Assembly: GCA_963794295.1 (NCBI GenBank)
Contig: CAWCDE010000006.1
Span: 18,738 to 82,737, forward strand
DNA from: an uncultured Acidobacteriota bacterium
GTDB lineage: Bacteria; Acidobacteriota; Thermoanaerobaculia; UBA5066; DATFVB01
Reading direction: 5' to 3'
Length of the DNA stretch: 64,000 nucleotides
Within the stretch, counting starts at the first letter, position 1. The number at the start of each line of letters is the position of its first letter. Both the position numbers and the translations under genes were made by a program. The notes under the pieces were generated by a model. It did no database searches and was not told where the DNA came from. It saw only the letters and a list, made by a program, of their open reading frames with translations. This document shows positions 11,934-58,758 of the stretch, piece after piece.

Positions 11934-12069
11934 GAGGCGATTATCTGCGGAAGATGCGACCGGGACGGCCGCTGCGGAAGATCGCCTCGCGATTTTCCGC
12001 AGCGCTGCTGCCGGGAAAGGTGAGGACGACGAGGCGCGGTGAGACGTGCTGGAAGACGGACGAACCCGG

Positions 12070-12164
12070 TGGATCGGCGGCACGGGCGTACCGAAAGCGT
12101 ACGTCGAAGCCGGCGATACGACGGGTTCGGCCGTGTAACGGCGCGTATCGCCGCGCCGGCTTCT

Positions 12165-12180
<16 letters not shown>
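12070..12180. repeat. GC-rich hairpin repeat, copy R1, core GGCGTACCGAAAGCGTACGT
   Basis: Core at 12084-12102, immediately 3' of ftsH. Shares the 20-nt core and a downstream ...GCGCGTATCGCCGCGCC... segment with copy R4. Confidence 0.6.
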
Positions 12181-14082
<1,902 letters not shown>

Positions 14083-16891: not shown

Positions 16892-16978
16892 TGGTGCCGG
16901 AGGTCGGAATCGAACCGACATGGGGTTGCCCCCGGGGGATTTTGAGTCCCCTGCGTCTACCAGTTTCACCACTCCGGC
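16892..16978 (-). tRNA. tRNA-Leu (anticodon CAA) with long variable arm and encoded CCA
   Basis: Reverse complement folds as GCCGGAG/CTCCGGC acceptor stem, anticodon stem-loop GGGGA-CTCAAAA-TCCCC (anticodon CAA), a long extra arm, a GGTTCGATTCC T-arm and 3' CCA. Confidence 0.85.
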
Positions 16979-17626: not shown

Positions 17627-18337
17627 GTGACAGGACGACGAATCTTCTGGCTCGCCGCCATTTTCCTGTCCGGCCCGCTCTTCGGCGCGGCGCGGAGCGA
17701 CGGGCTCCGTTCCCTGCTCGGGATCGAGCGGCGGGCGCTCGCCGGCGAGACGCGGCGGATCGCCGACCTTTCGCGCCGGCTCGAGTCGGCGGTGTCCGAT
17801 CTGTCGACGGCGTCCCGCGCGCTGGCCGACGCGGTCGGGCGGAGCGACGCCGCGCTCGCGGCCGCTTCGGACACCTTCGCGCGCGCTCTCGCGTCGGTCG
17901 ACGCCGCGGCCTTCGACCAGCGACTTTCCCTCGAGCGGATCCGTCTGCTGCGGGAACGCATCGGCGACCTCGAGCGCGAGGTGGCGGCCGGCCTTCCCGG
18001 CCACGAAGATCCGCTGACGGGCGACTGGCGCATCCGGATCGATCCGGGCGCGCAGGAGGGCGATCTCCATCTCTCTCTCGACGGCACGATCGTGTCGGGG
18101 AGCTATTCTCTCGAGGGAGATCTGACCGGCTCGGTCCGGGGGACGTTCGTGGGCGACGTGCTGAAGATCGATCGGATCGACTCGCGGCTCGGTTTCGTCG
18201 CGGTCTACTACGGGCGTCTCATGGCCGACGGGGTCACGATCACCGGCACCTGGGAAGGAACGGAGCTGAACAACGCGGGTCCGACGTCGGGGACCTGGAC
18301 GGCCGCCCGGAAGCCGGAGACGGAGGAATCGCCATGA
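17627..18337 (+). CDS. hypothetical secreted or membrane-anchored protein (236 aa)
   Basis: N-terminal hydrophobic signal (IFWLAAIFLSGPLFGAA). No recognisable domain. Overlaps the next gene by 4 nt (ATGA). Confidence 0.5.
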   Translation: MTGRRIFWLAAIFLSGPLFGAARSDGLRSLLGIERRALAGETRRIADLSRRLESAVSDLSTASRALADAVGRSDAALAAASDTFARALASVDAAAFDQRLSLERIRLLRERIGDLEREVAAGLPGHEDPLTGDWRIRIDPGAQEGDLHLSLDGTIVSGSYSLEGDLTGSVRGTFVGDVLKIDRIDSRLGFVAVYYGRLMADGVTITGTWEGTELNNAGPTSGTWTAARKPETEESP

Positions 18338-18924
18338 CGCGCGACAACTTTCTGTTCACGATCTGCGGACTCCTCGCCGGGTTCATCCTCGGCTATTTCG
18401 TCGCGACGGGCGGAGGGCGCTCCCCGGCGGCCCTTCCGGCCGCGGCGGCGGCCGTTCCCGCGGGAACGGGAACCGACGCGGCGCTGACGCCCACCCCGAC
18501 CGAGCTCGCCGCGCACGTGAACGAAGCGCGGGAGGCCGTCGCGCGCGATCCCGGAAACCCGGACCTCAATCTGCAGCTGGCCAATGCCCTCTACGACGCG
18601 AGCGACTGGAAGGGCGCCGCGGAGGCCTACGAGAAGGTGCTCTCGTCGCGGCCGAACGACGCGAACATGATCACCGACCTCGGGTCGTGCTATCGGAACA
18701 TGGGAAAGTTCGAGAAGGCGCTCGAGATGTACCAGAAGGCGCAGCAGATCGAGCCTTCCCATTCGCAGTCGCTCCTCAACATGACGCTCGTCTACGTCTT
18801 CGACCTGAAGGACCCCGCGAAGGCGCAGGCGGCTTTCGACCGGCTGAAGAAGGAGCATCCGGAGATCCCGCGGCTGAACGATCTGCAGCTGCGGATTTCG
18901 GAGCTCCGCGCCTCGAAGAGCTAG
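18334..18924 (+). CDS. membrane-anchored TPR-repeat protein
   Basis: N-terminal TM helix (LFTICGLLAGFILGYFVA), then TPR-like repeats (ANALYDASDWKGAAEAYEKVL..., GSCYRNMGKFEKALEMYQKAQQIEP). Confidence 0.68.
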   Translation: MTRDNFLFTICGLLAGFILGYFVATGGGRSPAALPAAAAAVPAGTGTDAALTPTPTELAAHVNEAREAVARDPGNPDLNLQLANALYDASDWKGAAEAYEKVLSSRPNDANMITDLGSCYRNMGKFEKALEMYQKAQQIEPSHSQSLLNMTLVYVFDLKDPAKAQAAFDRLKKEHPEIPRLNDLQLRISELRASKS

Positions 18925-18970
18925 GCGGGCGGGGGCGATGCCCCGAGCCGGACGGCGCGTCCGGGATAGC

Positions 18971-19136
18971 GGAAATTCCAAATCTCCCAAGCCTCAAATT
19001 CCAACAAACTCGAATCGCTAAATCGCAATGCCCGAAAGCGGGCCTTCGGATTACCGAGCCGACGCGTACTCGTGTATTGTTTGAGGATTGCGATTTGGAA
19101 GTTATTGATATTTGGAGCTTGAGGTTTGGAAATTCG
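18971..19136. repeat. low-GC palindromic MITE-like intergenic element, copy E1
   Basis: About 165 bp at roughly 45% GC in a 70% GC genome. Terminal inverted repeats: GGAAATTCCAAATCTCCCAAGCCTCAAATTCCAACAAACTCGAATCGC versus the reverse complement of GCGATTTGGAAGTTATTGATATTTGGAGCTTGAGGTTTGGAAATTCGG. Internal GCCCGAAAGCGGGC hairpin. Related copies at 38388-38548, 40166-40450 and 44411-44603. Confidence 0.7.
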
Positions 19137-21499: not shown

Positions 21500-21620
21500 C
21501 GCGAAGGCGCGGTGAGGCGCGAGCCTGGCGGGATGCGGGCGTCCGAGCCCGCGGCGTACCGGGGCGTACGTTAAGGCCGCGGGTCGGAGCGCACGCCCCC
21601 CCCGGCTCGACGCATCGCCG
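21500..21620. repeat. GC-rich hairpin repeat, copy R2, core GGCGTACCGGGGCGTACGTTAAGG
   Basis: Core at 21553-21576, immediately 3' of guaB. The core is embedded in the CCCGCGG...CCGCGGG stem. The flanks CCCGCATCCC and GGCTCGC are shared with R3 and R5. Confidence 0.65.
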
Positions 21621-21629
21621 CGCCTCTAA

Positions 21630-25974
<4,345 letters not shown>

Positions 25975-26029
25975 CTGATTCTGTGTAAACCGTTAGCTTA
26001 TCAAATAGATTTCACGGCTCAGAGCGGCG

Positions 26030-26345
26030 CGTCCATGCATCGAGCGATGCGGGCGCGTGCCGCCCGCCCGCGGCCTTAACGTACGCCCCGGTACGCCGCG
26101 GCCGCGGGACGGGCGGCCCGCATCCCACCTGGCTCGCGCCTGAACGCGCCTTGACGGTGTCTCGAGTGCCGCGATTTGGCGGGATGCAATCCCGAGGTTG
26201 GGAAATTGACGTTGAAGCGCGGTCAGACGTGCGGCAAGACGGGTTCGGCGGGACCGGCCGGCGGGCGCGGCGTACCGAAAGCGTACGTTAAGCCCGCCGG
26301 CGGCCCCGACGGGCCCGTATAACCGCGCGTATCACCGCGCTTCTC
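26030..26345. repeat. inverted pair of GC-rich hairpin repeats, copies R3 (26030-26145) and R4 (26250-26345)
   Basis: R3 core CTTAACGTACGCCCCGGTACGCC (26075-26098) sits inside the long stem CCGCCCGCCCGCGGCC / GGCCGCGGGACGGGCGG. R4 core GGCGTACCGAAAGCGTACGTTAAG (26269-26292) is in the opposite orientation. They lie between the M23 peptidase 3' end and the secA 5' end. Confidence 0.7.
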
Positions 26346-26346
26346 G

Positions 26347-27204
26347 TTACCTTGCGTCCAGAATATACGGGAGCGGATTCACCGCCCGGTTGTCCAGCCT
26401 GACCTCGTAGTGCAGATGCGGCCCGGTCGATCGACCCGTCGTTCCCACGACGCCGATCGCCTGCCCCCGGGACACGTGCTGACCCTCGAAGACCTGGATC
26501 TCGTCCAGGTGGCCGTAGAGCGTCCTCAGCCCGAGACCGTGGGCGATCTCGACGCACCGGCCGTAGCCGTTCACCCATCCGGCCTTCACGACGGTCCCGT
26601 CGGCGGAGGACACGATCGAATGGCCGCGCGGGCTCGAGATGTCGATTCCCGTGTGGAACGCGGGCTCCTCCGTGAAGGGGTCGCTCCGCTCTCCGAAGCC
26701 GCACGTGATGAGACCCGGAACGGGCTCGATCGAAGGCGTGTTCGACAGAAGGGCGTTCTGCTGCGCCAGCTTCTTTTCGAGGCCGAGCAGCCGTTCGTCG
26801 AGCGATCGGCCGCGCCCCTGGAGGTCGAAGGAACCGTTCGCGCCCTCCGGGAGCGCGCCGCCGGTGCCCCCCCGGCCGGCGTCGGCGAGAGCCGGGAGGC
26901 CGGCGACGATCGCGAGCTTCCGGGTGCGCTCCTCGAAATCGTCGAGCTTGCGGGAGAGAACCGTGAGCCGCGTCGTCATCTTCTCGGCCGAGACCTTCAG
27001 CCGTTCGTTCTCGAGGAGGGTGGCGCGGTAGGCCCGGTCCTTCCGGACCGAGACGAAATAGAGGGTGGTGAACGTCGCCGCGATCACCAGCAGGGCGGCG
27101 AGAGCGCCGCCGGCGGTCCAGAGGAGAGAGGAAGCGACCCGCAGCTTCCGGAACTTGGCCCGCGCGTGGGGCACGAAGATGATCGTGTTGTACTTCCGTC
27201 CCAT
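26347..27204 (-). CDS. M23-family murein endopeptidase with N-terminal TM and coiled-coil (EnvC-like)
   Basis: 285 aa. Coiled-coil region, then LytM/M23 motifs HTGIDI...GYG..VEIAHG...LYGHL...H.HYEV. Confidence 0.85.
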   Translation of the reverse strand: MGRKYNTIIFVPHARAKFRKLRVASSLLWTAGGALAALLVIAATFTTLYFVSVRKDRAYRATLLENERLKVSAEKMTTRLTVLSRKLDDFEERTRKLAIVAGLPALADAGRGGTGGALPEGANGSFDLQGRGRSLDERLLGLEKKLAQQNALLSNTPSIEPVPGLITCGFGERSDPFTEEPAFHTGIDISSPRGHSIVSSADGTVVKAGWVNGYGRCVEIAHGLGLRTLYGHLDEIQVFEGQHVSRGQAIGVVGTTGRSTGPHLHYEVRLDNRAVNPLPYILDAR

Positions 27205-50075: not shown

Positions 50076-51209
50076 GTGCCCTCGACCGCCGCCCTCGGGC
50101 TGCTCATCGCTCTGGTCGCGATCGCGGCTCTCGCGCTGTACGTCTCCGGGCGCCGCTCCGCGCGCGAGCAGCAGGACGCGATCGAGCAGCGCCGGATGCT
50201 GACGGCGTTGACGGCGGAGACGGCGGCGTCGAAGGCGCTCGCCGCGGAGTCGGGAAAGACCGTCCACGCGCTCTCCGAGGCGCTCGAGAAGCGCCTCGTC
50301 TCCTTCGAGCGGACGATCGACGAGCGGATCGCGGCGAGCCAGGCCGCGCTCGGCCAGAACATCGGGACGATGCAGCAGCAGAGCGCGGAGTCGGCGCTGC
50401 TCCTGAAGTCGGTCGGCGAGAACCTCGGCAAGGTTTACGAGGCATCCAGGAAGATCGAGAAGCTCGCCGGGGACGTGACGCGGCTCGAGGACCTGTTGAA
50501 GCCCCCGAAGATCCGCGGCCTGCTCGGCGAGTCGTTCCTCGAGGAGGCGCTCCGCCAGGTGCTCCCGCCCGGGAGCTGGGAGATGCAGAAGCGGTTCGCC
50601 GATGGCGAGGTCGTCGACGCCGCGGTCCGCGTGGGAGAGCGCTTCGTCCCGATCGACAGCAAGTTCCCCTACGAGAGCTACCGGCGGGCCGTCGACTGCG
50701 GAGACGACGCCGAACGCAAGCGCCTGATCCGGCAGCTCCGCGCGGCGACGAAGAAGCAGGCGGACGACATCGCCCGGAAGTACATCCGCGCGGGCGAGGG
50801 GACGCTCGAGTTCGCGCTCATGTACCTGCCCGCCGAGGCGCTCTACACGGAGATCGTGGCCGACGGCGAGGACGGCAACGTCGCGGAGTACGCGATCGAG
50901 CGGCACGTCATCCCCGTCTCGCCCACGCTGCTTTACGCCTATCTCTTCACCGTCGCCCAGGGGCTGCGCGGCCTCGAGATCCAGAAGCGGGCCCACGCGG
51001 TCGTCGAGGAGCTCGCGGTCCTGAAGCGGAGCGTCGACCGGATCGAGGAGCCCTTCGCGAAGGTCGGCAGCCATCTCTCGAACGCCCAGAAGCAGTACGA
51101 GGAGACGGCGAAGCAGCTCTCCCGGTTCGCGGAGCGTCTCCGCGAGATCGCCGAGTCCGAGGAGACGCCCGCGCAGGCCCCGCTGCCCCTCCTTCCCCCC
51201 CGCGCCTGA
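50076..51209 (+). CDS. rmuC: DNA recombination protein RmuC
   Basis: 377 aa. N-terminal TM helix, long coiled-coil, then the RmuC nuclease-like C-terminal domain (FVPIDSKFPYESY...EFALMYLPAEALY...). Confidence 0.82.
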   Translation: MPSTAALGLLIALVAIAALALYVSGRRSAREQQDAIEQRRMLTALTAETAASKALAAESGKTVHALSEALEKRLVSFERTIDERIAASQAALGQNIGTMQQQSAESALLLKSVGENLGKVYEASRKIEKLAGDVTRLEDLLKPPKIRGLLGESFLEEALRQVLPPGSWEMQKRFADGEVVDAAVRVGERFVPIDSKFPYESYRRAVDCGDDAERKRLIRQLRAATKKQADDIARKYIRAGEGTLEFALMYLPAEALYTEIVADGEDGNVAEYAIERHVIPVSPTLLYAYLFTVAQGLRGLEIQKRAHAVVEELAVLKRSVDRIEEPFAKVGSHLSNAQKQYEETAKQLSRFAERLREIAESEETPAQAPLPLLPPRA

Positions 51210-51329
51210 CCGCGGCGCGAAACCGCGTTTCGATCGCAAGTCGCTGACAGGCAAGGGGAACTTGCTCCGGCGTCGCGTCGTCCGATATAGTCCGCCCTTC
51301 GCGCCCGCGGATGACGGCGCGCCACCATC

Positions 51330-54519: not shown

Positions 54520-55595
54520 ACGCGCCGGGGAGGAAGCGGCCGCGTTCGGGGAGGCGCCCCGGTTTCTGGGTCCGGCCCGAGCTCCGGCGATACCTCCCCG
54601 CCGGGATCGGCGTGCTCGCGCTGGTCCTGCTCGCGCTGACGTTCGCCGTGGCGCCGCGCGGCCGGCGGCGTTCGCCGGGAGCGCCGGCCTCGGCGGCCGG
54701 GCCCGAACCCGCGACGATCTCGGAGAATGAGGCCGTGCTGCGGCGCGCCGCGGACTCCCGCTCGGAGCCGGTCATCACGCTGCGCCGCGGATCCGCGATA
54801 TCGGTCGTCGAGCAGAACGGGATCTGGTGCCGCGTGCGTGACATCTCGGGCCGCGAGGGATACCTTCCTCGCCGCGCCGTCGAACGCGACGCCGACCGCG
54901 CGCTGCGCGCGCGCCGGGCCGAGACGATCTTCCGTTTCGCCCCGCTCACCGGAGACGTCGCGGCCGACACGCCTCTCCTCCTCGCGCCGTTCTCGTTCGC
55001 GGCGGTCTGGGGGGACGCGGAGCGGGGGGATTCGCTGCCGATCTATTCGGTCGACCACGGCTACTACGCCACGAAGCTCCCGGACGGCACTCTCGGATTC
55101 GTCGCGTCCGAGGACGTCGACGTGATCCCCGCCAATCCCGCCGAGCCGGCGCTCACCCCCGGGTCGGGAAAAGTCGTCAGGGGGATCGAGGTCGCCGAGC
55201 AGACGCCCCCTCCGACCGCCGAGACGGCGCCCCCGCCGATCCCCGGGATGCCGTCCGACGTTCCCGAGCCGGGTCCGCCAGCCCCGGGGATCCCGCCGGG
55301 CGGAGTCTCGGGAGGAACGGAGGAAGTCGCGCCCGCGGTGCTTCTTCAGAAGGTCGATCCGACGTATCCCCCGGGCGCGCTCGCCGCGCGGGTCGCCGGC
55401 ACGGTCGTGCTGCAGGTCTCGATCGACCGCGAGGGGAACGTCACCCGGGTCGAGGTGAAGAGAGAGGCTCCGCTCGGCATGACGGAAGCGGCCATCGCCG
55501 CCGTCCAGCAGTGGAAGTACAAGCCGGCGACCGCTCTCGGCGGCCCGATCCCGTCGATGAAGCTCGTGCGCATCGAGTTCAAACCGCCGGAGTAG
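54517..55595 (+). CDS. TonB C-terminal-domain protein with N-terminal TM helix and SH3b domain
   Basis: 3' in-frame part of ORF 54276..55595. TM (YLPAGIGVLALVLLALTFAV), SH3-like (ITLRRGSAISVVEQNGIWCRVRDISGREGYLPRRAV), Pro-rich linker, TonB_C (VLLQKVDPTYPPGALAARVAGTVVLQVSIDREGNV...). Confidence 0.7.
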
Positions 55596-55659
55596 CAGGC
55601 GCGGCGATCCTCCTTCGCTCTCACGAGCTTCGGAGGATTGCCGGCAAGATCCGCCGTAG

Positions 55660-55790
55660 CCTCGGCGAAGGCGGATGCATCGAGCCGGCCGGGCGCGTGC
55701 CGCCGGCCGCCGCCACGACGTACGCTTCGGTACGCCTTAGGCGTCGGCCGGCGACCCGCATCCCGGCGGGCTCGCGCCTCGCCGCGCCTT
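55660..55790. repeat. GC-rich hairpin repeat, copy R5, core ACGTACGCTTCGGTACGCCTTAG
   Basis: Core at 55715-55740 inside the stem GCCGGCCGCCGCC / GGCGTCGGCCGGC. Flanks GCATCGAGC ... CCCGCATCCC ... GGCTCGCGCCT are shared with R2 and R3. Immediately 3' of the TonB-like gene. Confidence 0.65.
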
Positions 55791-56048
55791 CACGTGGTTC
55801 CAGCGTCAGGGCTCGGGCTCTTCCCTCATCCGGCGGCTTCCAGCCGCCACCTTCTCCCGCGGGGAGAAGTCGCGTGGAGGCTCGCTCCGCTCGCGACCCT
55901 ATCGGCCCTCGACCGCTTCGGAGCCCCGGGCCCGACGAGGGCACTCGCGGCCTCGCGGAGCGAGGACCACGCGAAGGATTCGAGCAACCGCGGTCAATCC
56001 GGGCCCGCCGGAGGCCTTGCCCCCGGCGCGGAGTAGAATTCACGCTAC

Positions 56049-58683: not shown

Positions 58684-58758
58684 TGGGGAGTCGCCTAACG
58701 GTAGGGCAGCGGCCTTTGGAGCCGCCTATTGAAGGTTCGAATCCTTCCTCCCCAACCA
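58684..58758 (+). tRNA. tRNA-Gln (anticodon UUG)
   Basis: TGGGGAGTCGCCTAACGGTAGGGCAGCGGCCTTTGGAGCCGCCTATTGAAGGTTCGAATCCTTCCTCCCCAACCA. Acceptor TGGGGAG/CTCCCCA, anticodon stem GCGGC/GCCGC with loop CTTTGGA, T-arm GAAGG-TTCGAAT-CCTTC. Very close to E. coli tRNA-Gln. Confidence 0.85.

Follow-up and report, generated by a model that had tools for sequence, protein, structure and literature searches.

The 64-kb stretch of DNA analysed here (the window) comes from an uncultured Acidobacteriota bacterium and carries, among other genes, ftsH, guaB, secA, an M23 peptidase gene and a TonB_C/SH3 gene, beside which lie five copies (A to E) of an imperfect hairpin repeat about 130 nt long. Here we report that this hairpin repeat is abundant in an uncultured soil Acidobacteriota lineage and that, in a single orientation, it follows ordinary genes immediately past their stop codons. 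We regard it as an unusually large relative of two elements already known, the repetitive extragenic palindromes (REPs) and the REP doublets forming hairpins (REPINs), and not as a new kind of system.

The copies share a core, GCGTAC-N{2,8}-GCGTACG, which has exactly five matches in the window, as originally predicted; dinucleotide shuffles lead one to expect 0.01, and none of 100 shuffles reached five. The core itself recurs as proposed, but its fixed N5 spacer was not borne out: the spacer is 4-5 nt, and the stricter pattern GGCGTACCGRRRGCGTACG is for this reason limited to two of the five copies. By sequence reading and an alignment of the five, the likeness among the sites spans about 130 nt, and every core is the apex of an imperfect hairpin 125-135 nt long, with a minimum free energy of -66 to -102 kcal/mol (z -4.4 to -7.9 against dinucleotide shuffles). 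Two subtypes can be told apart. Subtype AD (copies A and D) has the common sequence GACGTGC.GGAAGACGG ... GTATAAC.GCGCGTATC and subtype BCE (copies B, C and E) has GGCGCGAGCC.G..GGGATGCGGG ... CACGCGCCCG...GGCTCGATGCATC; the flank motifs GCATCGAGC, CCCGCATCCC and GGCTCGCGCCT, already described as conserved in three copies, are indeed present in B, C and E. A profile search found no further full copies in the window.

Pfam assignments place copy A between the ftsH stop and a YbbR-like gene, copy B between the guaB stop and a GGDEF gene, copies D and C between the M23 peptidase stop and the secA start, and copy E after the TonB_C/SH3 gene (Table 1). Since the neighbouring gene pairs all run in the same direction, each window site also lies upstream of another gene. 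Four of the five copies (A, B, D and E) adjoin a stop codon; in all four the motif-bearing strand is antisense to the adjoined gene, and the Pfam domains of the four genes reach the C-terminus. Between the 3' arm of the basal helix (P1) of copy B and the guaB stop there is, in addition, an out-of-frame TAG (CTA at 21626-21628). Copy C is the exception, its tail pointing to the secA start (25974), where there is no stop codon. The original prediction, which put every copy directly past a stop and an inverted pair at the M23 peptidase gene, is accordingly right for A, B, D and E and for the existence of the C/D pair, of which only D adjoins the M23 stop. It was also right that a site exists near 55660-55790, although copy E really runs from 55596 to 55791 with a nested insertion of 65 nt.

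Table 1. Repeat copies, their parts, adjoined stop codons and inserted sequences. Positions are those of the window unless an L-numbered contig is named; L-numbered contigs (e.g. L126, L212) are fetched related loci.
Feature	Position	Strand	Remark
Core match in copy A	12086-12103	+	Pattern search
Core match in copy B	21554-21570	+	Pattern search
Core match in copy C	26080-26096	-	Pattern search
Core match in copy D	26270-26287	+	Pattern search
Core match in copy E	55719-55735	-	Pattern search
Copy A (subtype AD)	12030..12161	+	Apex 12085-12105
Copy A basal helix (P1), 3' arm ATCGCCGCGCC	12147-12157		7 nt ahead of the ftsH stop codon
ftsH stop TAG (Peptidase_M41 open reading frame)	12165..12167	-	Adjoined by copy A
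Copy B (subtype BCE)	21503..21628	+	Apex 21553-21572
Copy B basal helix (P1), 3' arm	21614-21624		5 nt ahead of the guaB stop codon
guaB stop TGA	21630..21632	-	C-terminus read directly from the sequence; gene frameshifted further upstream
Copy C (subtype BCE)	26022..26153	-	Apex 26078-26097; inner member of a tails-out inverted pair
Copy D (subtype AD)	26213..26345	+	Apex 26269-26289
Copy D basal helix (P1), 3' arm	26331-26341		5 nt ahead of the M23 peptidase stop codon
M23 peptidase gene stop TAA	26347..26349	-	Adjoined by copy D
Copy E (subtype BCE)	55596..55791	-	Apex 55717-55736; broken by a nested insertion
Copy E basal helix (P1), arm GGCGCGGCGAT	55598-55608		Begins 2 nt past the TonB-like TAG stop
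TonB_C/SH3 gene stop TAG	55593..55595	+	Adjoined by copy E
Insertion, 65 nt, inside the basal arm of copy E	55609..55673	.	
276-bp miniature inverted-repeat transposable element (MITE), sites	L037 1209-1485, L054 242-517, L090 3111 to about 3390, L101 4248-4526, L141		OY970224.1 and a metagenome contig

The sites had been taken for a REP-type family of repeated hairpins, and a wider pattern search had been proposed. The sample searched consisted of the window, eight loci of the metagenome-assembled genome (MAG) OY970224.1 and 120 soil-metagenome contigs, together about 0.8 Mb, and iterated nhmmer found 220 copies in it, including 102 full-length, non-redundant ones. When one genome per species was scanned, real copies were seen, among the matches listed, only in OY970224.1, an uncultured Acidobacteriota MAG; the remaining listed matches contain the short core alone and are chance-like. 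A more specific pattern matched at least 120 soil-metagenome contigs, many at contig ends, which suggests that the repeats break assemblies. Each of the two lineages has both subtypes. Synteny with the window, at 82-87% identity, is seen in several contigs; the OY970224.1 loci show none, and their copies stand in other gene contexts. A cis-regulatory RNA had been considered, and one of a known family is not supported: Rfam has no family match for the repeats at gathering score, and its E-value mode returns only generic long-hairpin matches far below threshold (e.g. 33.7 bits against a gathering score of 268).

The hairpin of this family is under selection. A MAFFT alignment of 96 non-redundant copies was folded with RNAalifold and gave a rod of 36 base pairs, with compensatory changes in 29 of them. 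Paired cells of the alignment amount to 94.0%, against 81.0% in shuffles, of which none in 500 reached the observed value; cells with a double change number 354 where 110 are expected, and a control with the partner strand slid out of register pairs at 23-47%. Pair 12-136, for instance, is GC 61 times and CG 24 times, pair 15-132 GC 50 and AU 37 times, and pair 40-106 CG 44, GC 31 and AU 7 times. The original prediction had named a set of only five copies lacking covariation as the outcome that would speak against it; with many copies and clear covariation, the reverse was found. The rod is made up of sequence-conserved basal arms, fixed bulges and wobble pairs, a middle stem and an apex. The arms read GA-GGCGCGGCGAGGCGCGAGCC... 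on the 5' side and ...GGCTCGATGCATCGCCGCGCC-NGC on the 3' side (consensus ends GA-GGCGCGG ... CCGCGCC-NGC), the middle helix varies most in sequence with its pairing kept, and the apex, GGCGTACC-loop-GCGTACGT, is nearly invariant and the most conserved part of the element; it may hold the protein-binding palindrome pair that was originally suggested. Covariation backs an apex helix of 6 bp (GCGUAC/GUACGU) with a loop of 7-8 nt, in place of the 5-bp stem first drawn.

The two strands of the hairpin are unequal. In the motif-bearing strand, G·T cells number 444 and A·C cells 41. This strand, which is the antisense one, forms the more stable fold in 99 of 102 copies under RNA parameters (mean difference 13 kcal/mol), and under DNA parameters it does so in 95 of 102. 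The non-transcribed strand is known for an excess of C-to-T changes (deamination bias), which predicts the opposite asymmetry, and we therefore read the strand asymmetry as selection on the folding of the motif-bearing strand. Such folding could belong to a functional RNA or terminator on the antisense strand, one that stops or processes convergent or antisense transcription before it reaches the coding region, or to a small RNA family. The preserved folding, the coincidence of the hairpin end with the gene boundary and a motif, YTCAGTTG, 17-21 nt 5' of the hairpin foot on the motif-bearing strand in about 35 of 151 copies (about 23%; e.g. L131, L118, L179, L212) would agree with this. An RNA of that kind is nevertheless quite improbable: no U-tract lies past the hairpin, no sigma-70-like promoter was found upstream of copies C and D (scan at chance level), a TTGAC-like motif lacks a -10 partner, no source of antisense transcription is obvious in 59 tandem-gene contexts, and Rfam offers no match.

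A classical, intrinsic (Rho-independent) terminator, which the original prediction had also allowed for, was rejected. A U-tract is lacking past the hairpin on both strands, as are T-runs in the flanks of all copies, and a terminator scan of 25950-26400 performs at chance (one weak site, 0.5 expected).

The position of the repeat follows strict rules. Genes were called by a codon log-odds caller and checked with Pfam, and no copy was found inside a called gene. With the motif-bearing strand taken as plus, the 3'-side gene is read from the minus strand, converging on the element, in 166 of 188 cases, and 22 copies, including copy C, have the opposite orientation. Intergenic contexts are convergent in 72 cases, unidirectional in 72 and divergent in 3. 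Measured on the motif-bearing strand, the distance from the 3' end of the repeat to that gene's stop is between -10 and +10 nt in 103 of 145 cases; at the 5' end, neighbouring genes lie 30-1000 nt away. Neighbouring copies less than 600 bp apart form 22 inverted pairs with their tails out, none with their tails in, and 27 tandem pairs, as would be expected of copies that are each anchored at their own gene's stop. In tandem arrays a spacer of about 48 nt between copies is conserved.

The junction itself is biased towards TAG. Its commonest form is gene-TAG-C-N-GGCGCGGCGATGCATCGAGCC (TAG-C-N-GGCGCGG), and TAG is the stop of 63% of the adjoined genes but of 25% of the other genes on the same contigs (odds ratio 5.1, p = 2e-12). 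Copies that are not beside a called stop likewise have a TAG 0-5 nt from the foot in 13 of 66 cases (20%), against a background of 1.7%. Counted over unique copies, a TAG stands 0-5 nt from the foot in 54 of 156 (about 35%), and a G precedes it in about half of the modal TAG-C-N junctions. Among ten adjoined genes picked at random, nine have Pfam domains that run to the last residues, those found intact including thiolase, cysteinyl-tRNA synthetase (CysRS), a class II aminoacyl-tRNA synthetase (tRNA-synt_2) and cytochrome b/c; the adjoined genes are therefore intact and their stops natural. The antisense position of the motif strand, the tight, TAG-enriched adjacency to the stop within 0-10 nt and the better folding of the antisense strand all go beyond the original prediction.

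A hairpin folding on the bottom strand directly after an open reading frame, in fixed orientation and with its structure conserved over a variable stem sequence, recalls the attC sites of integrons, which are recombined by a tyrosine recombinase as a folded bottom strand past the stop of a gene cassette and reach sizes of 141 nt. In the present case that identity is largely refuted, and we give it very little chance. The base of the consensus has no R''/R' boxes (RYYYAAC / GTTRRRY). The flanks are core genes in conserved synteny (ftsH, guaB, secA, tRNA synthetases, thiolase) and not cassettes, the copies lie 5-30 kb apart and, at convergent genes, in both orientations instead of forming cassette arrays, and no integrase was seen.

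Comparison of syntenic contigs shows that the repeat is both conserved in place and turned over. Where the flanks are more than 98.7% identical, every copy is spanned by the contig alignment and no presence/absence difference occurs; where they are 74-90% identical, retained copies, replacement by another variant and presence/absence are all seen. Four retained orthologous pairs are 88-97% identical with flanks at 77-88%; one of the four is copy C and its ortholog in the syntenic contig L126, 91% identical, against 83.5% for the flanks, with compensatory changes in the stem. At the sites of copies B, D and E the relatives carry a different variant, at the identity level of random copy pairs (0.64-0.76). 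Presence/absence was found at six sites; one relative (L212), for example, has two copies where the window (57.69-57.73 kb) has none. A relative of the M23-secA spacer has a new copy beside the stop codon and a truncated ortholog of D further out. From replacement, presence/absence and retention together it follows that sites are reused and that copies are both gained and kept: after insertion, a copy is preserved by purifying selection on the hairpin, gives way to a variant at the same site, or disappears.

Two further places in the window have counterparts of the repeat in relatives. At 51210-51235, directly past the stop of the gene at 50076-51209, lies TGACCGCGGCGCGAAACCGCG, which looks like a remnant consisting of the basal helix only, and a related contig (L194) has a full copy at the matching site. 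At 18930-19135, 3' of the stop of the gene at 18334-18924, the window has a low-GC inverted repeat of about 200 bp (GGAAATTCCAAATCTCC ... GGTTTGGAAATTC), in whose place the syntenic contig L126 has a copy of the 130-nt repeat.

Other elements are found within the copies. The insertion in copy E contains a small hairpin repeat, CCGCCGTAGCCTCGGCGAAGGCGG (matched at 55651-55674), whose last matched base (55674) overlaps the resumed arm of the copy. Further occurrences of this small repeat lie within or next to copies in other contigs (L088, L119, L159, L170), and it is therefore a second, smaller repeat family that targets the 130-nt one. Some copies outside the window (sites in Table 1) are interrupted by a 276-bp MITE, whose terminal inverted repeats measure about 29 bp (GTGCCCCGGAACGGGAATAACGGTAGCGG) and which lies, in either orientation, exactly after the apex GCGTACGT; the MITE does not occur in the window, and an uninterrupted ortholog of a copy carrying it is present in L163.

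Copies kept in place more faithfully than the genes around them could be host-encoded RNA elements of the 3' untranslated region (3'-UTR), which would stabilise the 3' end of the mRNA, separate cistrons or tune translation termination, mobility being incidental or ancient. This would account for a hairpin that begins 0-10 nt past natural stops, for retained orthologs more conserved than their coding flanks and changed in a compensatory manner, and for the occupation of unidirectional and convergent regions with avoidance of divergent ones; REPs of E. coli within about 15 nt of a stop are reportedly able to tune translation termination (the work of Liang, Rudd and Deutscher in 2015 is said to show this). 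As an explanation of the whole family it is, however, unlikely. The mRNA would bear the strand that folds worse, since the wobbles belong to its antisense (444 G·T and 41 A·C cells), while deamination of the non-transcribed strand predicts the opposite asymmetry. There is no U-tract, copy C and 21 others lie in the opposite orientation, and a role in RNA only leaves unexplained both the enrichment of TAG and the TAG found at the tails of copies that are not beside a stop. Variants swapped at the same site and copies stacked in tandem point to repeated insertion.

We consider it fairly probable that the family is a giant, TAG-tailed, REP/REPIN-like element that inserts in a site- and orientation-specific manner and is kept by selection. 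In REPs of the GTAG type the termini often supply TAG stops, the repeats lie between unidirectional or convergent open reading frames, and dimers with GTAG on the outside predominate (Di Nocera et al. 2013, PMC3733652). The present repeat resembles these REPs and the bacterial interspersed mosaic elements (BIMEs) as a high-copy, extragenic, imperfect palindrome that occupies unidirectional and convergent spacers downstream of coding regions, with tails-out inverted dimers prevailing, with a TAG-containing tail that often serves as or adjoins a stop, and with other mobile elements inserting into its units. It differs from them in its unit of about 130 nt, against 20-40 nt (at most about 65) in REPs, in its multi-segment rod with an invariant apex motif, which is absent from REPs, in a loose tag, TAG being found in roughly a third to half of the copies, and in that no REP-associated tyrosine transposase (RAYT) was found in the fetched loci. 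To our knowledge, neither an orientation bias nor a proximity to stop codons nearly as strong has been reported for REPs.

REPINs have conserved arms and a spacer with compensatory changes, and their RAYTs are single-copy genes (Bertels and Rainey 2011, PMC3116915). The likeness to them lies in hairpins of about 100 nt with conserved arms and an intervening stem kept paired through compensatory changes, as well as in slow turnover, vertical persistence and the conservation of retained copies. Unlike REPINs, the repeat has arms (GGCGCGGCGAGGCGCGAGCC and its partner) that are not self-complementary and thus not themselves REP palindromes, a TAG tail at one end only, which makes it asymmetric, and a conserved apex; it occurs in Acidobacteriota rather than Proteobacteria, and no cognate transposase was found among the fetched loci. 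On account of its size, invariant apex, one-ended tail and strong orientation and stop rule, we class the repeat as a variant of the REP/REPIN kind and assign it to no defined REP family.

Class 3 TnpA-Y1 genes of Acidobacteria have atypical hairpins on their flanks, which reach about 600 copies per genome (Quentin et al. 2018, PMC6006769). As described, these hairpins of Acidobacteria and Planctomycetes share with ours the phylum, the high copy number (about 600 in S. usitatus) and the lack of a canonical GTAG, and the N-Y-G-A beside the foot on our motif-bearing strand resembles their CnGA 5' foot; they are described as weak, whereas the present hairpins are extremely stable, and no class 3 gene was found in the fetched DNA. 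The repeat also shares with the ends of IS200/IS605 elements and with palindrome-associated transposable elements (PATEs) the absence of an evident target-site duplication, insertion in one orientation beside a short specific sequence and a strand-specific hairpin; in some copies, the placement of the conserved motif 17-21 nt ahead of the foot on the 5' side is reminiscent of the left-end geometry of IS608. It departs from IS200/IS605 in having a single giant hairpin instead of two small subterminal ones and an orientation that follows the gene and not the replication strand, and no autonomous parent was found. The ERIC/IRU repeats of enterobacteria are imperfect palindromes of about 127 bp that occur in both orientations and are not tied to stop codons; the present repeat is like them in size, in its intergenic position within transcribed regions and in its long imperfect hairpin, but has no sequence similarity to them. 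The combination of features is thus a mixed one: on the gene-sense strand the TAG tail stands 5' of the hairpin, as in REPs, and folding is preserved on the other strand, as in attC.

Under the REP/REPIN-like reading, copies would arise by strand- and site-specific insertion just 3' of a stop codon, with a preference for TAG, the end that faces the gene being the same each time. This pattern would be expected of a single-strand nuclease, such as an HUH-Y1 enzyme of the RAYT-like or class 3 TnpA-Y1 type, acting on a folded DNA strand. Once inserted, the hairpin very probably also serves the upstream mRNA as a 3'-end hairpin, through protection, insulation or modulation of translation termination, because it is very stable and lies 0-10 nt past the stop; such a role would explain why copies are retained.

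Several points weigh against a mobile element of this kind. The unit is 3-6 times longer than any canonical REP, and the GTAG tag is not strict, TGA and TAA stops occurring at the same position and distance in the remaining copies. The contigs have about 700 intergenic TAG/CTA sites against 222 TAG stop codons, a roughly three-fold excess of non-stop sites, and a 3-nt TAG target alone therefore cannot explain the preference for stop codons. In the REP/RAYT system the tetranucleotide lies 5' of the hairpin on the recognised strand, whereas here the better-folding strand has CTA on its 3' side. That retained copies are better conserved than the coding flanks agrees with a host function no less well than with a selfish element. 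Neither two HUH/Y motif scans nor tblastn with E. coli RayT (from NC_000913) revealed an HUH-Y1 transposase in the fetched loci. Finally, we infer the exact boundaries and the absence of a target-site duplication from flank comparisons, no clean filled/empty pair being at hand: the candidates for such a pair (window 57.7 kb against L212; L229 against L121) contain additional sequence and leave the boundaries inexact.

The searches for an enzyme and for junction features gave the following. One weak tblastn match to RayT belongs to a LigD-like gene and was discarded. The open reading frames between flanking copies are ordinary genes only; neither an autonomous parent element nor half-elements separated by a coding insert were found in the fetched loci. 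The two ends of the repeat have different flank profiles, in which nothing recurs that would be a target-site duplication, and flank profiles and mutual information give only weak hints that the stem extends slightly further. Origin of the repeat as a MITE of an insertion sequence (IS) with terminal inverted repeats was rejected, neither a target-site duplication nor a parent IS with the same ends having been found in the fetched loci.

The remaining features of the window concern its genes. The open reading frames of ftsH (12165-14082), guaB (21630 to about 23550) and secA (22796-25974) are each split over several pieces or frames, and the inosine monophosphate dehydrogenase (IMPDH) domain appears in fragments, with its C-terminus in another frame; these split essential genes suggest frameshift errors of a long-read assembly, or pseudogenes. 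Two tRNA genes, at 16895-16978(-) and 58684-58755(+), are the sole Rfam matches in the window.

A more novel reading may be put forward, tentatively and with considerable doubt. The repeat might belong to a previously undescribed class of structured single-strand elements that home to the first few nucleotides past a stop codon, always with the folded strand antisense to the gene; the targeting would sense the end of translation or the state of the DNA that follows it, and the retained copies would serve the host as gene-end hairpins. If this is true, one candidate for that state would be single-stranded DNA or R-loops where ribosomes leave the transcript, a short DNA word being insufficient.

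The repeat adds uncultured soil Acidobacteriota to the range of REP/REPIN-type intragenomic replicators, in a form whose size and degree of structure are unusual and which could be misannotated as small RNAs or terminators. In a clean and quantifiable way it combines three features: copies adhere to stop codons in a single orientation, folding is maintained on the antisense strand, and retained copies evolve more slowly than the adjoining genes. The family thereby makes testable both how REP-like elements choose their sites and whether such a repeat is a parasite or a useful structure at the gene end. We regard its interest as moderate, and it would be higher if the targeting of stop codons proves to be mechanistic.

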